The notes under the pieces are model-generated. The model made no database searches. It had not been told where the DNA came from and saw nothing but the letters and a program-made list of their open reading frames with translations. Source: Desulfobaccales bacterium (lineage in GTDB: Bacteria; Desulfobacterota; Desulfobaccia; Desulfobaccales; 0-14-0-80-60-11). From it: a DNA stretch of 64,000 bases. Position numbers and translations under genes: made by a program. Location: positions 471 to 64,470 of the forward strand of contig JBKQLU010000005.1 in NCBI GenBank assembly GCA_052326585.1. Direction: 5' to 3'. This document shows, in pieces, positions 1,732 through 25,313 of the stretch; positions within the stretch are counted from its first letter, which is position 1; the number at the start of each line of letters is the position of its first letter.

Positions 1732-2562
1732 ATGGCCTTGATAACCCGGAAGCCAACCTCCGCCGGGCGGCGGCATCAGACGGCCCTCGATTTTGCCGAG
1801 ATCAGCCGCGGCGCCCCGGAGAAGAGCCTGGTAAGGACCTTGAAAAAGTCCGGGGGCCGCAACAGCTACGGCCGGGTCACCTGCCGCCACCGGGGCGGCG
1901 GGCATAAACGGCGCTATCGGCTCATCGACTTTAAACGCAACAAGCTGGGGGTGGAGGCGCGGGTGGCGGCCATCGAATACGATCCCAACCGCACCAGCCA
2001 CATTGCCCTGCTCCATTATCTCGACGGGGAGAAGCGTTATATTCTGGCTCCCCAGGATTTGCAGGTGGGCGCCATGGTGGTGGCCGGGCCCGAGGTTGAC
2101 ATCAAGCCGGGCAATTCCATGACCCTGGCCAATATTCCCACCGGCACCCTGGTGCACAACGTGGAGCTGAAGCCAGGCAAGGGCGGGCAGCTAGCCCGGG
2201 CCGCGGGCGTTTACGCCCAGTTGATGGCCAGGGAAGGGAAGAACGCGCATCTGAAGCTGCCTTCCGGGGAAGTGCGTATGGTCTCGGTGGATTGCCGGGC
2301 CACCATCGGCCAGTTGAGCAATGCGGAACAGGAAAATGTCAACCTGGGCAAGGCCGGGCGCAAGCGCTGGTTGGGGAAGCGGCCCCACGTGCGGGGCGTC
2401 GCCATGAACCCGGTGGACCATCCCATGGGCGGCGGCGAAGGCAAGTCCTCCGGGGGACGGCATCCGGTGACCCCCTGGGGGGTGCCCACCAAGGGCTTCA
2501 AGACCCGCAAAAAGCCCAAAGACAGCGACCGCAACATCATCAAACACCGGTCTAAGAAGTAG
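1732..2562 (+). CDS. rplB: 50S ribosomal protein L2
   Basis: 276 aa with '[18 protein letters not shown]' and '[16 protein letters not shown]'. Confidence 0.97.
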
Positions 2563-2573
2563 AGGGGAGAGAT

Positions 2574-2858
2574 GTGGCCCGTTCACTGAAAAAGGGACCC
2601 TACGTGCAGGATAGCCTGGAGGCCAAGGTACATACGGCCCGGGAGACCCAGGACCGCCGGGTGATCAAGACCTGGTCCCGGCGTTCCACCATCACCCCGG
2701 ACTTTATCGGCCTGACCCTGGCGGTGCATAACGGCAAGAAGTTCATCCCGGTGTACGTCACGGAGAACATGGTGGGGCACAAGCTGGGGGAGTTCGCCCC
2801 CACCCGCCACTTTGGCGGCCACGCCGGGGATCGCAAATCGAAAGTGGGTAAGAAATAG
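2574..2858 (+). CDS. rpsS: 30S ribosomal protein S19
   Basis: 94 aa with '[10 protein letters not shown]...[29 protein letters not shown]'. GTG start after a purine-rich RBS. Confidence 0.96.
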
Positions 2859-2860
2859 TT

Positions 2861-3202
2861 ATGGATATCACAGCCCGCGCCAAATACTTGCGCATCTCGC
2901 CGCGCAAACTGCGCCTGGTAGCCGAGTTGCTGTCGGGCAAAAAGGTAGGGGACGCCCTCTCCATGCTGCAGTTTCTGCCGCAGCGGGGCGCCAAGCTCGT
3001 GCGCAAGGTGATGGTGGCCGCGGTGGCCAACGCCGAACAACGCTCCCAGGTGGATGTGGACACCCTGGTGGTCAAAGGGGTCCAGGTGGACGGCGGCCCC
3101 AGCCTGAAGCGCTTTCAGGCCAGGGCCATGGGGCGGGTCAACCGCATCCTCAAGAGAAGCAGTCACATTACCGTGGTCCTCAAGGAAGGGCCCAGGAAAT
3201 GA
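2861..3202 (+). CDS. rplV: 50S ribosomal protein L22
   Basis: 113 aa with 'ARAKYLRISPRKLRLVA'; conserved position. Confidence 0.95.
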   Translation: MDITARAKYLRISPRKLRLVAELLSGKKVGDALSMLQFLPQRGAKLVRKVMVAAVANAEQRSQVDVDTLVVKGVQVDGGPSLKRFQARAMGRVNRILKRSSHITVVLKEGPRK

Positions 3203-15292: not shown

Positions 15293-15696
15293 GGCACTTA
15301 AAAGCCGGCCGGCGCCTCGCCCGCACCACGGAGCATCGCCAGGCCATGCTGCGGAATCTGATCACCGCCCTGCTGGAGCAGGAGCGGGTAGAGACCACCC
15401 GGGCCAAGGCCAAAGAGACGCGGCAGTGGGCCGAGAAGGTCATTACCCTGGCCAAAAGGGGTGACCTGCACGCCCGGCGCCTGACCCAGGCGGTGGTGCG
15501 TTCCAAAAAGGTGGTGGCCAAGCTCTTCGGAGAACTGAGGGAGCGTTACCAGGACCGCCCCGGCGGCTATACCCGCATCATTTCCGTGGGGGTGCGGCTG
15601 GGCGACGCCGCCCCCATGTCCATCCTGGAGTTGGTGGACCGGCCGGAGAAGCTGCTCAAGGCCAAAACCAAGGCCAAAAAGGCCGCAACCAGCTAA
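15289..15696 (+). CDS. rplQ: 50S ribosomal protein L17
   Basis: 135 aa with '[24 protein letters not shown]'. ATGA overlap with rpoA. Confidence 0.96.
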
Positions 15697-15711
15697 ACTG
15701 CGTTCACCTCG

Positions 15712-15732
15712 GGGGCCAGGAGACTTGGCCCC
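15712..15732 (+). terminator. hairpin after rplQ (weak terminator candidate)
   Basis: GGGGCCA-ggagact-TGGCCCC lies 16 nt after the rplQ stop. Only a 'TT' follows, so function is uncertain. Confidence 0.3.
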
Positions 15733-15865
15733 TTATCCCTGCCGCGCCCTCCGCCCTGCCCATTTGGCGTCTTCCGCCCCGGCCGGGGCCGGAAAAAAAT
15801 GCCCCGGTATCTCCTTAATAATACAGGCTAACCCGGTTGCGGCGCCCAACCACGGGAAAAACCAT

Positions 15866-15894
15866 TTGACATCCAGGTTTGTCTATATTAAAGT
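15866..15894 (+). promoter_or_regulatory. sigma70-like promoter candidate for the NlpC/P60 gene
   Basis: TTGACA (15866-71), 17-nt spacer, TAAAGT (15889-94). Followed by the palindrome TAGGTAA-gt-TTACCTA at 15909-15924. Confidence 0.35.
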
Positions 15895-16041
15895 CGACCT
15901 AAATTAAATAGGTAAGTTTACCTAATCATGCGTGGGTAATTTTGCCTAGTAGTCAAAGGCTCTTTTAAAAGATGCCCGTATTCCGGGGCTGAAGATCCAG
16001 CTAGCCCCCTCCGGATGGTCCCATCACCAAGGAGGTTCTGG

Positions 16042-16863
16042 ATGGCAAAACGGATAATCGTCAGCACGGCAATCACCCTGGCACTAACTTTCTCTTCCAG
16101 CCTGGCCTATTCGCTACCTACGAAAACCGTCAAGAAAAAGCCGTCCTCTTGCAATACCCAGAAAGGGGATAGCGCCAAAAGCAGAACAGTCAAAAAGTCG
16201 AGTTACAGCAGGCATTCCCGGTCGGAAAGCCGCGAGGTCATGGAATCTTCCATGGTGCCGCAATCTTCCGGCGGCCGGGTCTACGAGACCCCCCCCTTGA
16301 TGAAGGTCACCCCCCAACGGGATGGCGGCTTTCTTCTCGAACCCTTAGAGCCCAAGAAAAACGGGGCTGCCCTGAGCAAGCCTTCCTCCACCCGGGAAGT
16401 GGACCGGGATCAAAGCTCCCTCCCGAAGGGGGAGCACCAATACAACCGGTTTGAGCCCTGGGATTTCTCGGATCTGATCCTGGCCCAGGCCAGGTATTAT
16501 CGGGACACCCCCTACGCCCGCGGCGGCTCACTGCAGACTGGCAATGCCACTGATTGCTCCGGGTTTGTGCAATACATTTACAAAGGTTTTAAGATCAATC
16601 TGCCCCGGTCCAGCGCCGAACAGGCCCAGGTGGGCAAGGTCGTGACCCAGGATATGGATTTCTCCAAGCTGCTTCCCGGGGATCTGCTCTTCTTCCGGCG
16701 GGGCGGCCAGGTGGGACACGCCGGTATTTACCTGGGGGGCGGCAAGATGATCCACGCCTCCAACCCTCGCAACGGGGTGACGGTCACGGATTTGCGGCAA
16801 CCGTACTATGAAGGCACCTTCGTGGTGGCCAAACGCGTCTTCGAGGTGCATTACCCCAACTAG
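16042..16863 (+). CDS. NlpC/P60 family (C40) cell-wall peptidase, secreted/lipoprotein-like
   Basis: C-terminal 'DCSGFVQYIYKG...GDLLFFRRGGQVGHAGIYLGGGKMIHAS' gives the Cys/His catalytic blocks. Signal-like N-terminus from the ATG at 16042, preceded by AAGGAGG. Confidence 0.88.
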   Translation: MAKRIIVSTAITLALTFSSSLAYSLPTKTVKKKPSSCNTQKGDSAKSRTVKKSSYSRHSRSESREVMESSMVPQSSGGRVYETPPLMKVTPQRDGGFLLEPLEPKKNGAALSKPSSTREVDRDQSSLPKGEHQYNRFEPWDFSDLILAQARYYRDTPYARGGSLQTGNATDCSGFVQYIYKGFKINLPRSSAEQAQVGKVVTQDMDFSKLLPGDLLFFRRGGQVGHAGIYLGGGKMIHASNPRNGVTVTDLRQPYYEGTFVVAKRVFEVHYPN

Positions 16864-17164
16864 TAATCCCCTCTGAGGGCCGGCTCTTCCCTGCCGGCGA
16901 CCATTGACTAGTCCAGCCCTGGATTTTCTGTCAGGAAATGGGGAGACGTGCCCTGCTGCCAGAGAGGGTACGCCAGGAGGGGCCTGGTCCCTGCACGGGA
17001 CTGGGCTTTAGCCCGGCTCCCAGGAATTATATTGCCCCGACCCAACGTTTGCGTTATTTTGTCTAGGAATAACTTTGACTAAAGGATTTGCTGGCGCTGG
17101 CGAGAGGCGCGGCCCCAGTGGTGAGAGCGCTTCCGCTCACCGGGATTATGGACCCAGGGAGGAA

Positions 17165-18136
17165 ATGGCCAAGGTGGGGGGCCCTGATTTGTGGGAGACC
17201 CGGCTCAAAGAGAAGCACCCCATGCTGCAGTACTTTACCGACCGGCCCTTCGGGGTCGAGATCGAGATTTTTGGGCTGAAATATTCCATCTCCACCGGCG
17301 ATCGCCTGGTGATTCCACCGTACCAGATCATGAACCGCTCCCAGGATGGCAGGCGGCTGCCGCAAGTTTTTCAAGACCAGGGACTGGTCCTGAACGGCTA
17401 CTCCCCCGAGGCACCGGCTTACCAGGCCTGGTCTTTCGTCCTGGACGACACCATTAAAGGGGCCGGCGCCAGCGAACTGGTGAGTCCAGTCCTTTCCGGC
17501 CTCCAGGGCCTGACCCAGGTTTACCGGGTGCTGCTTTTAATCCAGAAGTTTCCCGAGATCCTGGCCAACGAAACTTGCGGTTTCCATGTACATCACGGAG
17601 TGGAGCGGACCGTTTACGGCAATCGGGAACTCTTTCATTTGCTGCGGATCATTTCCATCTTTGAGGACTATATCTACCAGCTATTGCCGGAGGAGCGGCG
17701 GCAGGCCGAGACCTGCCGGCCCCTGGAGGTGGATCTCTGCGATTGGTACCGCCGGGAGGGCTGTGACCAGCCGATCCCCCGGGTGCGCGGCCTCTGGTAT
17801 TCACCGGAGAACCGGGATGACCTCAAGACCCCGCGGCGCCGCAAGCTCCATCCCACCCGCTACCACGGCCTCAACCTGCACTCCTACTGGTACCGGGGCA
17901 CCATCGAGTTTCGCTACTATCCTTCCGCCATCCAGGAGCCGGAAGAATTGATGCAGTGGATCATCTTCAGCCAGTTCCTGGTGGAGTGGGGCCAAGGGCG
18001 GCGGCCAGTCCTGGAGTACGTCCGGCAGCCCAATAAATGGCTCAACACCCTGTATAAGATCTATCTAGTCGCCGGGATGCTCTCCCATATCCGCTTCCCG
18101 CTGCCGGGCGGGGAGGAAGGAGAGAAGCCAGCATGA
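17165..18136 (+). CDS. Amidoligase_2-type (GS/GCS-fold) COOH-NH2 ligase
   Basis: Blocks 'FGVEIEIFG', 'ASELVSPVLSG...CGFHVHHG' and 'RYHGLNLHSYWYRGTIEFRYYPS...LMQWIIF'. Start uncertain among 17075, 17165 and 17222. Confidence 0.7.
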   Translation: MAKVGGPDLWETRLKEKHPMLQYFTDRPFGVEIEIFGLKYSISTGDRLVIPPYQIMNRSQDGRRLPQVFQDQGLVLNGYSPEAPAYQAWSFVLDDTIKGAGASELVSPVLSGLQGLTQVYRVLLLIQKFPEILANETCGFHVHHGVERTVYGNRELFHLLRIISIFEDYIYQLLPEERRQAETCRPLEVDLCDWYRREGCDQPIPRVRGLWYSPENRDDLKTPRRRKLHPTRYHGLNLHSYWYRGTIEFRYYPSAIQEPEELMQWIIFSQFLVEWGQGRRPVLEYVRQPNKWLNTLYKIYLVAGMLSHIRFPLPGGEEGEKPA

Positions 18137-18492
18137 CCAGCGGCGGCATCCAGACCCATGATTTTATCAGGCGCCTCAAGCAGGTGGAAGAAGGCAGCCT
18201 GGCACCTCTGCTCCTGGAACTGGCCCGGGAGATGGAGGCCATGATCCTGGAGATCGACAGCCCGCAACTGGAAGATATCAGGGGACTCCAGGAGAGGATG
18301 CGGCGCTTGATCGGGGACGCAAGCAGACTGCGGGCCGTTTGTGGCACCTCCGGGGAGCTTTGCGGCCAGTGCCCCTTCGGGGCCTACCTCCCTGCCGGGT
18401 TTCCTTACGCTTCGGAAAAACAGGCCTTGTGTATTCCCTGGATTGCGCTGGTGCATCCGATCCCGGAGGAAGCCCCGGCCGCGGAGGGTTAA
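18133..18492 (+). CDS. hypothetical protein, helical N-half plus C-x6-C-x2-C...C motif
   Basis: 119-aa ORF whose ATG overlaps the amidoligase stop (ATGA). No family recognised. Confidence 0.55.
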   Translation: MTSGGIQTHDFIRRLKQVEEGSLAPLLLELAREMEAMILEIDSPQLEDIRGLQERMRRLIGDASRLRAVCGTSGELCGQCPFGAYLPAGFPYASEKQALCIPWIALVHPIPEEAPAAEG

Positions 18493-18741
18493 GCGGCTTT
18501 ATGGGATCCATCTCAGCCTGATTCGGCGTCCGGCTTGGCTCAGCGGCAAGTCTGCCAGTCAGCGCCTGGTGGCAGGCCCCCTGACCATTTTTTTTGCCGG
18601 GCCGTCAGGGCTTAATTTCAATAGATTTTCTAAGAAATGCGCTAGCAATTTCGCCGGCTCATGTCCGAGGCCAGTTGCGCTCTCGATGGTTCCAGGCGCC
18701 CGGCGAGCGGCCACTAGGACGGTGGCCGGGGAGAAGGGCTG

Positions 18742-21267
18742 ATGGCTAACGCCCTGGTCATTTTAGTCTATCTGGCGGCTGCATCGATCCAACTCATCGC
18801 GGCGTATTCCGCCCTGAGGCTCATCCGGGTCACCGGCAGAAGCCCGGCCTGGCTCTTGATCTCCGCGGCCTTCTGCCTCATGGCGATGCGCCGCCTCATC
18901 CTGCTCGGTTACCACCTGACCGGCTTCCAGCCCATCCCCTTTTCCCTCTGGCAGGACGGCCTGACCCTGGCGATTTCGGCGGCGCTGCTGGCCGGTATCC
19001 TCAGCATCTCTCCCCTGGTGTTGGTCATCAAGCGCGCCGCGGCCCTGGAGTTCTCCAAAAAAGAGTTGGAGGCGGAAAGGCAGCGGCTCTATGGCGTGTT
19101 AGACGGGTTGCCGGCCATGGTGCACGTGGCGGGGCCCGATTTTTTCCTTCGTTTCGGCAACCGCTTCTTCCGCGAGAACTATGGGGACTGGGAAGGGAAA
19201 CGCTGTTTTGAGCTGTTGGCGGGGAGGACGGAGCCTTGCGCCGCCTGCCCGGCCCTCAAGGTCTTCGCCACCCAGGCTGTCGCGGAAGTGGAATGGACCG
19301 ACGCGCCGCACCAGCGAACCTACCAGATGTACTATTATCCCTTGAGGGACCCGGACGGCACTCCCCTGGCCCTCACCCTGGGCATCGACATCAGCGGACG
19401 CAAGCTGGCCGAGGGGAACCTGAAGGAGCAGGAGCGGGAATACCGTCGGCTGGTGCGCGCCATCCCGGCGGTGGTCTTTAAGGGTTATGAGGATTGGTCC
19501 ATCGACTTCTTCGATAACGAGATTGAAACACTTACCGGATATAAGAAGGAGGACTTCGCCTCCCGCCGCCTGAAATGGTCCGATCTCGTCCTGGAGGAGG
19601 ATCGGGGCGGCGAATACAAACAGGCATTTATCAATGCCTTGAAGGAAGACGGCCGATTTATCCGGGAATACCGCATCCGCACCAAGGATGGCCGCATCCT
19701 GTGGATCGAGGGCCGGGGCCAGATAGTCTTTCGGCCGGACGGCCAGATCGACCATGTCACCGGGGTGTTATACGACGTCAGCGAGCGCCGGGCCAACCGG
19801 GAGGCCTTGCTCCAAAGTGAGTCCCGGCTGGCCAAGGCGCAGCAGCTCGCTGAACTGGGGCACTGGGAATTGAACCTCCGGTCCGGCGAGATGATCTGGT
19901 CCCCTGAATTATACCGCATCTGCGGGGTGGATCAGGGGAGCTTCGTTCCATCGCTGGCAGCGAGTTTGAGTTTGGTGCACCCGGAGGATAAGGCGCGGGT
20001 GAGAGATAGCTTGAAGCGGGCCCTGGCTGGAGAAGGGCCGTTTTCTCAAATTGGCCGCCTGGTGCGGCCGGACGGGGCCATCCGGTATTTTCATACCCAG
20101 GCGGAAGCCGTCCGGGACGAACATGGGAAACTGTGGCGCATGGTGGGGACGGTCCAGGATATCACCGAACGCCGGATTGCCGTAATGCGGCTCACGGAAA
20201 GCGAAGCGCGCTTCCGGGCCGTCTTCGAGCGGGCCCCCCTGGGCATCGGCCTGTTTGACCTGCAAGGGCGCTTCCTGAGCGCCAATAAGGTCTTTCAGGA
20301 GATGCTGGGATACGCTGAGGATGAATTGAGGGGCAAGCCCATTGCGGAAATTTCCCATGCCGATGATCGGCAGAGGACCATGGAAGTTTTCCAGGAAATG
20401 GCCTCCGGGCGGCAGGAGGGCTACCAGATGGAAAAGCGCTACCGCCGGAAAACCGGCCAATATTTATGGGCCCGGGTGACCGCTTCCCTGGTGCATGACT
20501 CCGAGGGACAACCCTTATATGCGGTGGGGATGGTGGAGGACATCACCCAGAGAAGACAGGCGGAGACGCGGCTGCAAGAGTCGCAGGAGACATTGCGCCA
20601 CCTGGCCTCTCAGTTGATGTCGGCGCAGGAGGACGAACGCAAGCGGATCTCCGGGGAATTGCACGATGAACTGGGGCAGGCCTTGCTGGTCTTGAAACTC
20701 CAGACCAGGGAGATCGAGAAGGGGTTGGCGCCGGAGGAGCAGCGGCTCCGGGAAGAATGCCAGGGGATGCTGGCCAATCTGGACCAGGTGGTGGACAAGG
20801 TCCGGCGTCTCTCCCATGACCTGAGCCCCATGATCCTGGAGGATCTGGGCCTGTCCGCGGCCTTGAAGCATATGCTTCGAGAATTCAGCAAACATAATCA
20901 CCTGGAGTGCGAATTCCAGGAAATCGACATTGATGAGCTGTTTCCCCAGGAGGCGCAAGTCGCCATCTACCGCATCTTTCAGGAATGCCTGACCAATATC
21001 GGCAAGCATTCCCAGGCCACCAGGCTGGAGGTGGCCATCGCCAAGGGGCCGGACCGGGTCTCCTTCCTCATCCGGGACAACGGCAAGGGGTACCGGGTAG
21101 AGGCGCGACGCCGGGGCCAGGGTCTGGGACTGGTGGCCATGGAGGAACGGGCCCGGATGGTGGGTGGGGACCTGTCCGTACAAAGCCGGGAGGGCCAGGG
21201 CGCCAGTATTTCCTTCGAGATTCCTTATGCTTCCCAGAAGCGTCAGAGATCATTGCAGAAGCAGTAG
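18742..21267 (+). CDS. membrane-anchored multi-PAS sensor histidine kinase (HisKA_3/NarL-type)
   Basis: 841 aa with N-terminal TM helices and a Cys-bearing PAS-like module ('CFELLAGRTEPCAACP'). Repeated PAS/PAC modules ('DITERR', 'DITQRRQAE'), H-box 'ELHDELGQAL', and ATPase 'DNGKG...GQGLGLVAMEERA'. Confidence 0.9.
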   Translation: MANALVILVYLAAASIQLIAAYSALRLIRVTGRSPAWLLISAAFCLMAMRRLILLGYHLTGFQPIPFSLWQDGLTLAISAALLAGILSISPLVLVIKRAAALEFSKKELEAERQRLYGVLDGLPAMVHVAGPDFFLRFGNRFFRENYGDWEGKRCFELLAGRTEPCAACPALKVFATQAVAEVEWTDAPHQRTYQMYYYPLRDPDGTPLALTLGIDISGRKLAEGNLKEQEREYRRLVRAIPAVVFKGYEDWSIDFFDNEIETLTGYKKEDFASRRLKWSDLVLEEDRGGEYKQAFINALKEDGRFIREYRIRTKDGRILWIEGRGQIVFRPDGQIDHVTGVLYDVSERRANREALLQSESRLAKAQQLAELGHWELNLRSGEMIWSPELYRICGVDQGSFVPSLAASLSLVHPEDKARVRDSLKRALAGEGPFSQIGRLVRPDGAIRYFHTQAEAVRDEHGKLWRMVGTVQDITERRIAVMRLTESEARFRAVFERAPLGIGLFDLQGRFLSANKVFQEMLGYAEDELRGKPIAEISHADDRQRTMEVFQEMASGRQEGYQMEKRYRRKTGQYLWARVTASLVHDSEGQPLYAVGMVEDITQRRQAETRLQESQETLRHLASQLMSAQEDERKRISGELHDELGQALLVLKLQTREIEKGLAPEEQRLREECQGMLANLDQVVDKVRRLSHDLSPMILEDLGLSAALKHMLREFSKHNHLECEFQEIDIDELFPQEAQVAIYRIFQECLTNIGKHSQATRLEVAIAKGPDRVSFLIRDNGKGYRVEARRRGQGLGLVAMEERARMVGGDLSVQSREGQGASISFEIPYASQKRQRSLQKQ

Positions 21268-21326
21268 AAGTTATTTCCACACCTCGCTCTATCCCCTAAA
21301 TAGCCAGCTTAAGTCCACCAAAATGC

Positions 21327-21504
21327 GAGATTCTGCGGGGCGCGCCGTATGACTTTCTTCCCTCTCGTTCCCAAGCTCCAGCTTGGGAACGCCCCCATGG
21401 CGCCAAGCTCCGCTTGGCGAGGGCCTGCTTGCCTCAGGGCGGGCCTGTATGAGCAAAACAAGAGCTTTGCGTTAAAATGGGTTCCCAAGCCGGAGCTTGG
21501 GAAC
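21327..21504. repeat. cluster of intergenic palindromic repeats
   Basis: 'gagattctgcggggcgcgccgtatgac' (21327-53) recurs at 23493-23519. Three hairpins share a CCAAGC-loop-GCTTGG core at 21367-90, 21401-19 and 21481-504. Confidence 0.8.
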
Positions 21505-21568
21505 CAGAATCCCCCCGGCGGGCCGGCTAAAGCCTGCGGCTACCGGAATATCTAAATGAAAGATGAAA

Positions 21569-21934
21569 CTAAAAGGGCAGGGCGCTTCCCAGGAAGGCGT
21601 GCAGGTTCCGGAGCAGGAGGGCGGCGTTGGGGGCCGGCAGGTCCCAGAGGACCAGGAGCATGGCCCCCATGACCCCCTGGCCCCAGGAGCAGCTGCACTT
21701 GACGGTGGCCGGCAGCTTTGGGGCGCCCAGGATGGCGGTGAGGTCGGCGACCATTTCCCGGCCCAGGGTGGAGGCGGCGACGTTCAGGGAGATCTGGTCG
21801 GAATAGAGGGTCAGGGAGAACTCCACTTCCTCGGGGGCGCCGGCGGCCCCGGCGCCCCGGGCCCGCCCTTCCAGGAAGGCCACCTTGCGGCGCCGTTCCT
21901 GACGGTCAAGGATTATCTGCCATTTGGGGGACAT
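21569..21934 (-). CDS. hypothetical protein (paralog of 23575..23952)
   Basis: 121 aa. By eye it aligns over its full length with the second ORF ('WQIILDRQERRRKVAFLEG' versus 'WQFTILRQEARSRRLILEG'; both end '..LG.ALP.'). Confidence 0.6.
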   Translation of the reverse strand: MSPKWQIILDRQERRRKVAFLEGRARGAGAAGAPEEVEFSLTLYSDQISLNVAASTLGREMVADLTAILGAPKLPATVKCSCSWGQGVMGAMLLVLWDLPAPNAALLLRNLHAFLGSALPF

Positions 21935-22136
21935 GGGATAAAGTCTGCTTTCAGCTTTCAGCTATCAGCCAGTGTTAAGGCCCGGTTGCCAATGAAAGCC
22001 GCGCCTTATGAATCACGAAGCAAATTATAACGCCTTTAACCCAATGGTGTCCGGCAGAAGATTTTCCATAAGGGCTGGCGAATGAAAATCGAAAAATGTA
22101 GCCCCAAACCCTTAGACAAACCCGCAAACGCCAAAA

Positions 22137-22166
22137 CCCCCTCTCCCCCGTTGGGGGAGAGGGGGG
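22137..22166. repeat. GC-rich hairpin repeat (CCCTCTCCCC / GGGGAGAGGG family)
   Basis: ccccctctccccc-gtt-gggggagagggggg. Same arm sequence at 29932-29958, with a related variant (CCCTCCCCC) at 49644-49666. Confidence 0.8.
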
Positions 22167-22351
22167 AAAAGCAAGATAGATCCAATAATTAATAAATGGG
22201 GATTTGGCAGCCCATATTACATGGCAGGTCAGCAATTACCTTGTCGGACGGTAATGCCCCAAACCAGGTAAGCCTTTTGCCGCAAAAAAAAAAGCGAAGT
22301 TTGGCTTTTTTGCCTTAGGTGACAACTGATAGCTGCTATCTGACGGTTTTT

Positions 22352-23344
22352 TTACATCAACTTTTTCAGGCGGGCGGCAAAGCCTGGAAGCTTAAGGGCC
22401 TCCGCCGTCCTGCCCAGGCCCAGGAGGGCGAAGCCTTTGCCGGTCAGGGCCTCGTCCAGGTCGGGGGCGTGTTTGAGAATCTTGTCGAAGCAGGCCAGGG
22501 CCTCGTCGTAGTGCTGCAATTCGGTGAGGGTGGTGCCTTTATAGACCAGGGCTTCAACATTGCCCGGGTCCAGCAGCAGGGCGACATTGTAACATTCCAG
22601 GGCCCTTTCCGGGCGGCCGGCATCGGCCAGCATCCGGGCCGCGTCCAGATAGGGGCGGCGCTGGTCTTCCTCTATCGACTTGCGGGTTTCCAGATAGGCG
22701 TTGAGCACGTGGGCCTCGCCGTCGGAGAAGGCGGGCTGGCCGTGGCCCGGCAGCAGGAAGTCGATCTGGTAAGGCACCAGGCGGCCCAGGGAGGCGATGA
22801 GTTGGTCCATGCTGCCCAGACTCTTATCGGCGTCAGACAAGACATTTTCCATGGGAGAGCTGGGAAAGACCGTATCCCCGGAGAAGAGAAGGCGCCGTTC
22901 TCGTTCGTAGATGCAGATGTCGCCCCGGGTGTGTCCCGGGGTGTGGATCACCTCGAGGAGATGGCTTCCCGCCTGGAGGCGCTCGCCGCCCCGGAGAATC
23001 ACCACCTGGTCGGCCCGGCCGGCCTTCTCCATGATCTGCATGAAGGGCACGTTGCGAAAATTGATGTGGGGCAGGGTGTCCATGTGCCCATAGACCTTGG
23101 GGTTGCACCAGTCGAAGAGCTCGCCCATGCCGCCGACGTGGTCGAAGTGGCAGTGGGTGATGAAGATCTGTTCCAGGAGGGAGAGATCGAAGACGTCGCT
23201 AAGTTCATGGAGGATACCGTAGAAGTTGCCGGCGTCTATAAGGGTGCGGCCTTCATTGAGGACGTAAACATTGCTGCTCATGCCCGCTTCTTCAACCCAC
23301 CAGATGCCCGCAAGCAAGGGGTCATATTCGCCCAGATGGATCAT
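22352..23344 (-). CDS. MBL-fold metallo-hydrolase with C-terminal TPR repeats
   Basis: 'THCHFDHVGG' HxHxDH motif and 'HTPGHTRGD'. The C-terminal ~90 aa is TPR-like. GGAGGAG RBS. Confidence 0.85.
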   Translation of the reverse strand: MIHLGEYDPLLAGIWWVEEAGMSSNVYVLNEGRTLIDAGNFYGILHELSDVFDLSLLEQIFITHCHFDHVGGMGELFDWCNPKVYGHMDTLPHINFRNVPFMQIMEKAGRADQVVILRGGERLQAGSHLLEVIHTPGHTRGDICIYERERRLLFSGDTVFPSSPMENVLSDADKSLGSMDQLIASLGRLVPYQIDFLLPGHGQPAFSDGEAHVLNAYLETRKSIEEDQRRPYLDAARMLADAGRPERALECYNVALLLDPGNVEALVYKGTTLTELQHYDEALACFDKILKHAPDLDEALTGKGFALLGLGRTAEALKLPGFAARLKKLM

Positions 23345-23492
23345 GGCTCCTCCTGAAAGGCCGGTAAAATCTCTGCTTCTATTTTACCTGGACGCCGGCG
23401 ATAAGCAATCTCCGCACCGCGCTGGTCCGGGGTGACATTAGGGCTTGACGGAGCTGGAAGCCCTGGCAAAACTCGTTTTCACTGCCAGATAT

Positions 23493-23556
23493 GAGATTCT
23501 GCGCGGCGCGCCGAATGACAATTTTGGGCAGAGCGAGGGTTGGCAATAGCTTCCAG
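23493..23556. repeat. partial copy of the ~170-nt repeat family
   Basis: 'gagattctgcgcggcgcgccgaatgac' plus 'gggttggcaatagcttccag'. The latter matches 'ggggttggcaatagcttctag' in the copy at 59954-60122. Confidence 0.6.
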
Positions 23557-23574
23557 GTAGATAACCATCAACTT

Positions 23575-23952
23575 TTATTCTCTTATGGCGCCTGCAGGCA
23601 AGGCCCGCCCCAGAATCTTCCCCAGCCGCTTGATCATCTCCCCACGCCCGGTTGGGGTAAAATGCCACTCCACCAGAAGCAGGGCGCCTTCCTCGTCGAG
23701 CTGGCTGCCGCCCACCTGTACCCGGGGCGGGGCCGCCGGTGGCCCCAGAAGTCCGGCCAGATATTGCCAAAGCCGCTCGCCATCAAAGTCCCGGCTCACC
23801 TCCAGGGAGAGGTAATCGGGACCGGCCACCGCGAAGAACAAGAGCGGATCGGGATAAGGGCGCGCGTACGGGGGATGAGCCTGGCCTTCCAGGATGAGGC
23901 GCCGGGAGCGGGCCTCCTGGCGCAGGATGGTGAACTGCCAATTTTCCGGCAA
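23575..23952 (-). CDS. hypothetical protein (paralog of 21569..21934)
   Basis: ORF 23575..24102. A TTG at 23952 preceded by AAGGAAG gives 125 aa, colinear with the 121-aa paralog. Start is inferred. Confidence 0.6.
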   Translation of the reverse strand: MPENWQFTILRQEARSRRLILEGQAHPPYARPYPDPLLFFAVAGPDYLSLEVSRDFDGERLWQYLAGLLGPPAAPPRVQVGGSQLDEEGALLLVEWHFTPTGRGEMIKRLGKILGRALPAGAIRE

Positions 23953-24173
23953 CGCGGCTTCCTTTGCGGTACTAGCTTCGATTTTAACCGGTTTCCCGGG
24001 AGGTGTCAAATGGCAGGCCCGGGGGCGGCGGCTGGCCAAGGTCGTCGTGCCTTTTTTCACTAGGGCGGCGGCAGAACCCTTGACAGGGATTGGCAGAGAC
24101 AATAAAATTTAACATTCTGCTTGATCTCCCGAGATTTGCTGAAAAAATCAACGATTAAAATAAGGTGATAGCA

Positions 24174-25313
24174 ATGAAAATGTATCTCATGACTCCGGGC
24201 CCCACCCCGGTGGCCCCGGAAACCCAGTTAGCCATGGCCCAGCCCATCATCCACCATCGGGCCCCACAATTCATGGAGATCCTGGCCCGGGTGCGGGAAG
24301 ATCTGAAATACCTGTTCCAGACGGAACAGGAGGTCCTGATCTTTTGCGCCACCGGTACCGGGGCCATGGAGGGTGCAGTGGCCAATACCCTGAGCGCCGG
24401 GGACACTGCCCTGGTGGTGGACGGCGGCAAGTTCGGGGAACGCTGGACCGAACTGTGCACGGTTTATGGAGTCAAAGTAGAGCGCCTGGCGGTGGAGTGG
24501 GGCCACGCGGTGGACCCGCAGACGGTGGCCCGGATGCTGGACGCCAACTCGGCCATCAAGGCGGTCCTGGTCCAGGCGAACGAGACCTCAACCGCGGTGG
24601 CCCACCCGGTTCAGGAACTGGCGGCAGTAACCAGGACCCGGCCGGGAACCATCCTGGTGGTGGGCGCCATTTCGGCCCTGGGTGGCTATCCCTTGCCCAT
24701 GGACGCCTGGGGCATCGACCTGATGGTGGCAGGCTCGCAAAAGGCCATGATGCTGCCGCCGGGGTTGGCCTTTGCCGCGCTCGGCCCCAAGGCCTGGGAG
24801 TTTACCAAGACCTCTAATCTGCCCAAATACTACTTCGATTTTGCCAAGCACCTCAAATCCCAGGCCAAAAACCAGACCCCCTATACCTCGGCGGTCTCTT
24901 TGATCATGGGTCTTCAGGAAGTCCTCGGCAAGATTCGCGGGCTCGGGCTGGAGCGCATCTACGCGCACAACCTGCGGCTGTCCCTGGCCACCAAGGCGGC
25001 TATGCGGGCCATGGGGCTTAAGCTCTATTCCAAGGATAACCCCTCGGATGTCGTCACCGCGGTGGAGTCTCCGGTGGACGGCCAGAAGGTGGTGGCCGAA
25101 CTGCGGAAAAAGGGAATCTGGATTGCTGGCGGGCAGGCCCAGGCCAAAGGCAAGATCTTCCGCATCGCCCACATGGGCTTCATAGACGCGGTGGACCTGC
25201 TGGGCACCATCGGCGGCCTGGAGGAGGTTCTCAACCAGTTGGGCCACCGGGTGGAGCCGGGCGCCGGGCTCAAGGCGGCCCAGGAGATTTTGAGCAAGGA
25301 GGCAGCGGTATGA
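24174..25313 (+). CDS. class-V (AGXT/SerC-like) pyridoxal-phosphate aminotransferase
   Basis: 'MTPGPTPV...' N-terminus and 'AGSQKAMMLPPGLAF' PLP-lysine block. ATG at 24174 follows AAGGTGA. Stop overlaps the serA start. Confidence 0.85.
   Translation: MKMYLMTPGPTPVAPETQLAMAQPIIHHRAPQFMEILARVREDLKYLFQTEQEVLIFCATGTGAMEGAVANTLSAGDTALVVDGGKFGERWTELCTVYGVKVERLAVEWGHAVDPQTVARMLDANSAIKAVLVQANETSTAVAHPVQELAAVTRTRPGTILVVGAISALGGYPLPMDAWGIDLMVAGSQKAMMLPPGLAFAALGPKAWEFTKTSNLPKYYFDFAKHLKSQAKNQTPYTSAVSLIMGLQEVLGKIRGLGLERIYAHNLRLSLATKAAMRAMGLKLYSKDNPSDVVTAVESPVDGQKVVAELRKKGIWIAGGQAQAKGKIFRIAHMGFIDAVDLLGTIGGLEEVLNQLGHRVEPGAGLKAAQEILSKEAAV

Follow-up and report, generated by a model that had tools for sequence, protein, structure and literature searches.

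Within a 64-kb window (the whole stretch of DNA that was analysed) from a Desulfobaccales bacterium, a predicted carboxylate-amine ligase gene of the Amidoligase_2 family (PF12224; positions 17165-18136) and a gene for a 119-aa four-cysteine (Cys4) protein (18133-18492) form what comparative analysis identifies as a conserved bicistronic unit across Desulfobaccales, an order of sulfate-reducing bacteria. Judged from gene order, this pairing of ligase and small protein is new for the Amidoligase_2 family. The small gene takes the position held by GATase_4 genes in a sister clade, the usual amidohydrolase partner apparently being replaced in the clade of the window. The best matches of every gene examined are metagenome-assembled genomes named Desulfobaccales (phylum Thermodesulfobacteriota), and the ligase region lies directly downstream of the ribosomal string map-infA-rpsM-rpsK-rpsD-rpoA-rplQ. 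The unit has the following features.

17047..17063, plus strand: conserved non-coding block TTTGCGTTATTTTGTC, a putative functional element recognised in the intergenic alignment of closely related loci (the close group, below)

17165..18136, plus strand: predicted Amidoligase_2 ('new CAL') carboxylate-amine ligase, 323 aa (PF12224 at 101.9 bits, AlphaFold2 model, Foldseek)

18110..18136, plus strand: predicted translational-coupling junction with the Shine-Dalgarno sequence GGGAGGAAGGAGAG and ATGA (sequence, conserved overlap)

18133..18492, plus strand: 119-aa Cys4 small protein that represents a narrow and novel family (homologues, codon-position bias, AlphaFold2 model)

The open reading frame (ORF) at 17075..18136 contains FGVEIEIFG, ELVSPVLSG, CGFHVHHG and YHGLNLHSYWYRGTIEFRYYPS, which make up the three sequence blocks on which an initial annotation had based its assignment to Amidoligase_2 and the glutamine synthetase fold. 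That assignment is upheld by the profile match to PF12224 (E=6.7e-29, against a Pfam gathering threshold of 22 bits), which runs from residue 57 to residue 300 of the 353-aa ORF and covers positions 3-242 of the 245-position profile, and by the structural matches described below. PF12224 is the sole Pfam match, and a scan of NCBIfam returned no model for the ligase. The ORF exists as annotated, but its start at 17075 is probably too early: TTG 17075 is merely the longest mechanical start. Because orthologues measure 320-323 aa and conservation does not extend into the first 30 codons, the true start is most likely ATG 17165, which is preceded by GGGAGGAA and gives a product of 323 aa.

The AlphaFold2 (AF2) model of the ligase, built from 73 homologues, has a mean predicted local distance difference test score (pLDDT) of 84.2 and a predicted template-modelling score of 0.86, with six core strands (residues 28-36, 89-93, 103-106, 140-145, 235-237 and 246-251). 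In a Foldseek search of the PDB its top match, at a probability of 1.00 and E=2.7e-5, is 1tt4 (YbdK/GCS2, a gamma-glutamyl:cysteine-type carboxylate-amine ligase); dozens of glutamine synthetases rank below it. The template-modelling (TM) scores of these matches are low (0.35-0.42), with identities of about 10-14%; 1-naphthylamine glutamine synthetase is also among the fold matches. The viral models of BFVD gave 42 matches at E<=1e-3, and those that are named are mostly phage amidoligases. TM-scores over the PDB and phage matches are modest throughout (0.35-0.52), and a sequence-profile search of the PDB with the ligase detected no solved structure.

In the active-site signature of the superfamily, strand 1 carries GhExE, strands 2 and 3 acidic residues, strand 4 [HD]x[NH] and strand 6 Ex[RK]x2D; two arginines complete it (PMC2588565). 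In the ligase these correspond to G30-V-E32-I-E34, D94 and E104, H141-V-H143, E248-F-R250, and R232 with R244, all invariant in the 73 ligase sequences. The trailing Asp of the strand 6 motif is absent; strand 6 reads EFRYYPS in the window ligase and EFRYHSA in the sister clade. The ligase is thus predicted to be a catalytically intact Amidoligase_2 enzyme with a glutamine synthetase/YbdK fold, carrying all motifs but that Asp. A profile score far over the cut-off, a GCS2-like size, the glutamine synthetase-fold core and the GhExE, HxH, ExR and two-arginine motifs all liken it to the rest of the family. An ATP-dependent acyl-phosphate ligase mechanism is well supported by homology, but its substrates are not: YbdK and the glutamine synthetases share the active-site signature and include the best structural match, yet at such TM-scores and identities their substrates are not transferable to the window ligase. 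With no signal peptide, the enzyme is a predicted cytoplasmic carboxylate-amine ligase.

The family was defined computationally as 'new CAL' by Iyer, Burroughs and Aravind in 2008 (PMC2588565). A literature search on PF12224 found no paper reporting an experimentally tested member. The Klebsiella CfmP paper is irrelevant to the family, as it concerns ATP-grasp enzymes.

The second gene of the unit encodes a protein without a signal peptide, with the cysteine spacing C70-x6-C77-x2-C80-x19-C100. Its layout consists of an N-terminal G-x-Q-T-x-D/E-F motif, a three-helix bundle, a Cys4 core (C80-PFGAYLP...C100-LPW) and a Pro-rich C-terminal tail that varies in sequence and length. Across 116 aligned homologues, 23 columns are invariant, including all four cysteines, the C80-P-F-G-A-x-L-P block and P102-W103. 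Even the most divergent members (27-40% identity) retain the four cysteines, P-F after the third, W after the fourth and the N-terminal motif. The small ORF is, on codon-level evidence, a true coding gene, because pairwise differences concentrate at third codon positions (24,562, 16,377 and 38,799 differences at first, second and third positions, respectively); the ratio of non-synonymous to synonymous polymorphism (pN/pS) is about 0.45. The initial annotation had described the same cysteine pattern and had named the lack of a coding signature as grounds for giving up its proposal; the pattern is as claimed and the third-position bias is present.

None of the 124 homologue clusters of the small protein carries a Pfam domain or an informative name. 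Searched exhaustively by profile, a set of 1.84 billion representative proteins yielded just 22 clusters. P0257, a 493-aa repetitive protein matched in that search, was judged spurious. The small protein has no sequence or fold match in the PDB and no match in NCBIfam. As far as these searches reach, the family is new, undescribed and essentially confined to the Desulfobaccales lineage. The AF2 model of the small protein has a pLDDT of 71.5, with values of 80-88 in the helices and 59-65 in the Cys region; the N-terminal motif is conserved yet poorly ordered. The low-confidence Cys region would fit a fold that requires a bound metal. Taken with the coding signature and the invariant motifs, the model points to a real, folded and probably metal-binding protein.

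Conservation of the gene pair was assessed at 80 genome loci with ligase relatives, 39 in a close group and 41 in a sister group; with the window added, the close group numbers 40 loci. The close group represents 39 species-level Desulfobaccales genomes, with ligases 66-88% identical, while the sister group (40-49% identical) covers Syntrophobacterales, Desulfobacterales and the isolate Desulfoferrobacter suflitae. A further 71 metagenomic loci were found via the small protein, of which 42 have enough upstream DNA to be judged. At the junction, the TGA of the ligase overlaps the ATG of the small ORF (ATGA), and the strong Shine-Dalgarno sequence GGGAGGAAGGAGAG lies within the 3′-end of the ligase gene. 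The small ORF is directly downstream of the ligase in all 40 close-group loci, and of the 39 that are scorable, window included, 32 preserve the 4-nt overlap (ATGA); those without the exact overlap mostly show a gap or overlap of a few bases. Among the 42 metagenomic loci judged, 35 have a full ligase, five have none and two have remnants. The stop/start overlap with the ORF at 18133..18492 had been pointed out in the initial annotation, which also suggested examining the gene neighbourhood across genomes; the overlap is confirmed, and the neighbourhood is retained in 39/39 Desulfobaccales genomes. Downstream of the small ORF are a hairpin and a U8 tract, the fold of which is not significant as a terminator (z = -1.46).

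In the sister clade, GATase_4 genes, usually two, directly follow the ligase in 35 of the 41 loci. Among named proteins they come closest to the gamma-glutamyl amidohydrolase EgtC, at a score far below the cut-off. No homologue of the small protein was found in any of the 41 sister-clade loci, even by hidden Markov model (HMM), and GATase_4 is missing from all 40 close-group loci and from the entire 64-kb window. The published neighbourhood of the 'new CAL' family features a thiol peptidase of the GATase-like type or else the gamma-glutamyl cyclotransferase Aig2, and a related family carries a fused transglutaminase-like domain as thiol peptidase (PMC2588565). According to the defining paper, neither small conserved ORFs in general nor Pup-like small ORFs accompany 'new CAL' genes (PMC2588565). 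The sister clade therefore shows the published type of neighbourhood, with a thiol amidohydrolase, whereas the window clade departs from it, because GATase_4 is absent and a coupled, conserved small ORF stands in its place. Gamma-glutamyl groups are added to and removed from amines by PuuA/PuuD, by the glutamine synthetase-like enzymes for aniline or 1-naphthylamine and by EgtA/EgtC. The sister-clade loci, with a ligase and two EgtC-like GATase_4 genes, resemble such pairs; the window clade has no local amidohydrolase, and therefore a simple cycle of addition and removal is not encoded locally.

Other genes of the region are as follows.

16042..16863, plus strand: exported NlpC/P60 (C40) peptidase (PF00877, E=3.7e-26), a probable bystander

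18742-21267, plus strand: kinase with three PAS domains, HisKA_3 and HATPase (Pfam domains), a variable insertion

21569..21934, minus strand: X121, 121 aa, a paralogue of X175 and the last gene of a convergent unit (cluster 16, HMM cross-match)

22352..23344, minus strand: metallo-beta-lactamase (MBL)-fold metallo-hydrolase (HxHxDH) fused to tetratricopeptide repeats (TPR) (Lactamase_B, E=2.8e-25, and TPR families)

23575..24102, minus strand: X175, paralogous to X121 and first in the minus-strand unit; the start codon is uncertain, and orthologues are about 120-130 aa

The kinase had been described as an orphan sensor kinase adjoining the ligase pair. It is an orphan, as no receiver domain occurs anywhere in the 64-kb window, but it does not belong to the conserved module: many loci that are syntenic in other respects do not have it, and locus comparison shows it to be an insertion that comes and goes between the small gene and X121. 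The DNA between these two genes is rearranged by insertions, while the ligase/small-gene junction is unchanged. Because the DNA beyond the small gene varies in this way, the fixed junction is more than mere frozen synteny. A PADLOC search gave no defence-system match.

X121 (cluster 16) is found in 33 close-group loci, usually in two copies. The HMMs of X121 and X175 match each other, and neither protein has a relative in Pfam, NCBIfam or the PDB; they are taken here as paralogues of an undescribed protein family. The closest NCBIfam model to the MBL domain is glyoxalase II (GloB), at 62.9 bits and far below the cut-off. All 32 close-group genome loci of sufficient extent have an MBL-TPR gene, as do 16 of 17 metagenome loci. 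In the sister clade such genes lie 3-4 kb from the ligase in 10/41 loci, apparently of a single Syntrophobacteraceae-type lineage and within a CoA-transferase operon. MBL-TPR also adjoins divergent homologues of the small protein that have no ligase (L085, L088 and L131), and in L085, an unrelated locus, an X121-family gene stands next to it as well. By gene order, no neighbour of the small protein persists more than the MBL-TPR/X121/X175 unit, even at loci with no ligase, and MBL-TPR is a probable associate of the small protein. Three lineages tie MBL-TPR to the ligase, the small protein or both, which is suggestive, if weakly, of one module.

Several further genes were observed around the sister-clade ligases. 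In Desulfobacterales, an ADP-forming acyl-CoA synthetase gene lies directly upstream of the ligase in 16 loci (L051, 7998-10025, plus strand) and a FlK-type thioesterase gene nearby in 14 (L060, 1-405, plus strand). In Syntrophobacteraceae, the MBL-TPR operon includes family-III CoA-transferases (L071, 16769-18184, minus strand). A ThiF/E1-like gene (PF00899, E=1.2e-34; L071, 6502-7788, minus strand) with an extra N-terminal Rossmann-like half is located about 2 kb upstream of the ligase in Desulfoferrobacter suflitae and five further sister-clade loci. As a speculation, the CoA-thioester enzymes at sister ligases and the glyoxalase II-like MBL domain might hint at thioester- or thiol-linked chemistry. 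Two small proteins of the Syntrophobacteraceae loci, Y140 and Y156, were considered as counterparts of the window genes and rejected, since by HMM they resemble neither the small protein nor X121.

The following explanation is proposed for the unit. The ligase would use ATP and Mg2+ to phosphorylate a carboxylate, probably of the gamma-glutamyl type by analogy with the family, and would couple the activated carboxylate to an amine to form an amide. Coupling through ATGA would cause the small protein to be made in step with the ligase. The small protein, with no catalytic role of its own, would bind metal (Zn or Fe-S) and serve the enzyme as partner or adaptor, neither as a Pup-like tag nor as a peptide precursor, and could tie the ligase to the convergent X121/MBL-TPR/X175 unit, perhaps by binding the TPR domain. 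As a joint proposal, a ligase with a metal-binding adaptor linked to the MBL-TPR unit is tentative, and its probability is put at roughly 0.4.

Several observations weigh against this explanation. Co-occurrence of the two genes is in part phylogenetic inertia, as the 39 genomes all come from a single order in which synteny is fixed. Divergent homologues of the small protein also occur without a ligase. Besides those next to MBL-TPR in L085, L088 and L131, one lies between TPR proteins (L084), and the weakest relative, P0259 (E=7.5e-7; L081-L083, at about 2850-3190, plus strand), follows three tandem Peptidase_U32 genes. At the level of the family, the small protein therefore has a role independent of the ligase. 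Genes for FprA-like, rubredoxin and rubrerythrin proteins near P0259 provide a redox/oxidative-stress context with no amidoligase. In L085, two tandem small genes of the Zn_ribbon_8 (FmdB-like) type (1952-2463, plus strand) are found directly before the small-protein homologue.

Furthermore, the ligase gene of a peatland lineage has been deleted or disrupted by a frameshift, and the small ORF there is still intact. The deletions (L146, L148, L149/L150, L151 and L108) come from peatland metagenomes and close relatives of the window organism; they are clean and internal and remove nearly the whole gene, with two different 5′-ends and the same 3′-end. What is retained in each case is the final ~75 nt of the gene, including the Shine-Dalgarno sequence and ATGA. 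One deletion type keeps the 17047-17063 block and the other removes it. L039 and L147, which are independent assemblies, have a common lesion of net -4 nt in the ligase. Where the ligase is lost, X121, MBL-TPR, X175 and NlpC/P60 remain intact along with the small ORF. The small ORF then has 12 non-synonymous changes to 2 synonymous ones, which departs from the family background (P=0.018). The ratio of 96:49 in neighbouring genes of these contigs does not differ from it (Fisher P=0.20), and the signal of relaxed selection is therefore not specific to the small ORF. The losses are too recent to be read for continued selection on the small gene. By these genotypes, the ligase is dispensable in some populations, and the deletions speak neither for nor against a dependence of the small protein on it.

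In one alternative, the two genes would share a transcript but not a function, the small protein working with X121, MBL-TPR and X175 and the operon being a matter of packaging in Desulfobaccales. In its favour, the most persistent neighbour of ligase-less small proteins is an MBL-TPR or TPR gene (L084, L085, L088 and L131), accompanied in L085 by the X121-family gene, and the peatland losses leave the small gene together with all three members of the convergent unit. However, ATGA is kept over ligases 66-88% identical despite rearranged flanks, the MBL-TPR genes near sister ligases that have no small gene point to one shared module, and the ligase losses are too recent for their substitution counts to speak to selection. 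Separate functions are accordingly a possibility of some weight, but on the unlikely side.

A second alternative makes the small protein a substrate or carrier of the ligase, which would place an amine or amino acid on a conserved carboxylate of the small protein or attach the protein elsewhere, in the manner of Pup/PafA or of a scaffold peptide. The carboxylate-amine ligase superfamily of the window enzyme also includes PafA, which ligates Pup (PMC2588565), and here too a ligase of that superfamily is encoded beside a small protein, which in PafA/Pup is acted on by the ligase. The tight, conserved translational coupling would also fit, as would the conserved but poorly ordered N-terminal motif and E95 (YASE), which is invariant in the 116 ligase-linked homologues and replaced by S, Q or N in some divergent members without a ligase. 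Unlike PafA, however, the window ligase matches PF12224 alone and not the PafA family. Unlike Pup, the small protein is Cys-rich and folded into a confidently modelled three-helix bundle rather than disordered, and its variable C-terminus has no GGQ/GGE-like end. Dop, Mpa or proteasome genes were not found among conserved neighbours within 7 kb on either side, nor is a deamidase, protease or transporter conserved nearby. The persistence of the family beside MBL-TPR genes without a ligase also argues against this alternative, as does the failure of the family-defining authors to find Pup-like small ORFs (PMC2588565). Pup- and RiPP-like roles (RiPP, ribosomally synthesised and post-translationally modified peptide) are disfavoured because the small protein is folded, its C-terminus is variable and its relatives are ligase-independent. 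A substrate or carrier role is thus unlikely. Slightly more doubtful still is a variant with protein modification, in which the ligase would modify a conserved carboxylate of the Cys4 protein, or build an amide-linked product on it, with MBL-TPR as reader or eraser. Were it true, this would be the first Amidoligase_2 enzyme shown to act on a protein, and a bacterial modification or scaffold chemistry unrelated to Pup.

The upstream gene raises a third alternative. It was correctly described in the initial annotation as an NlpC/P60 peptidase, and with the ligase it was thought to form a make/break pair acting on a gamma-glutamyl-type bond of an envelope or peptide substrate. The catalytic Cys and His motifs (DCSGF and GHAGIY) are present in its translation, thiol peptidases are typical partners of the ligase family (PMC2588565), and the two genes are adjacent in 39/40 close-group genome loci and 28/28 metagenome loci. 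Nothing in the comparison specifically supports this pairing. The NlpC/P60 ORF extends over 16015-16863, but its start is probably at 16042 (MAKRIIV...), as orthologues are about 272 aa and begin at MAKRIIVSTAITLALTFSSSLA, a Sec-type signal peptide; the peptidase would be exported, in a different compartment from the ligase and small protein, neither of which has a signal peptide. The gene is absent from 41/41 sister-clade loci and stays intact where the ligase is deleted. Its best NCBIfam match is of the MepS type, a housekeeping murein endopeptidase, at 80.6 bits against a cut-off of 186, no equivalog being reached, and homology searches yielded just close Desulfobaccales orthologues. A low-complexity Ser/Lys/Pro-rich linker of about 130 residues separates the signal peptide from the catalytic domain. 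In every locus the NlpC/P60 gene lies at the end of the rpoA-rplQ operon. Its adjacency to the ligase is hence indistinguishable from inheritance with the rplQ operon end, and the gene is probably a bystander.

The spacer of about 300 bp between NlpC/P60 and the ligase also speaks against a pair. Its sole strongly conserved stretch is the 17047-17063 block (TTTGCGTTATTTTGTC), about 100 nt before the ligase ATG, which may be a promoter or operator. A candidate -35 (TTGCCC, 17032-17037) and -10 (TATTTT, 17055-17060) agree with only 8/12 consensus positions and hence went unreported by the promoter scan. An Rfam scan of 15600-24300 gave no credible RNA element. Taken together, a make/break pair of ligase and peptidase is very improbable.

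A RiPP-type precursor, with a Cys-rich C-terminal core modified by the amidoligase as tailoring enzyme, is suggested by a small Cys-rich ORF with a helical 'leader-like' N-half beside an amide-forming enzyme, but is scarcely credible. Conservation is reversed relative to what precursors typically show, being highest in the Cys core and lower in the drifting N-half. Multiple precursor copies are absent, and the conserved neighbours include no radical-SAM enzyme, cyclodehydratase, leader peptidase or exporter.

Amidoligase_2 enzymes are widespread in bacteria and in many phages and were predicted computationally in 2008-2009; Iyer et al. in 2009 reportedly treated the family further. The two-gene unit of Desulfobaccales offers a clean handle on this family, as a dedicated Cys4 protein appears to replace the usual amidohydrolase. 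The comparative data focus attention by setting aside NlpC/P60 and the kinase and including the MBL-TPR/X121/X175 unit. Should ligase and small protein assemble into a complex, or should one of them modify its partner, the unit would provide both the first functional foothold on this ligase family and a new family of small metalloproteins.

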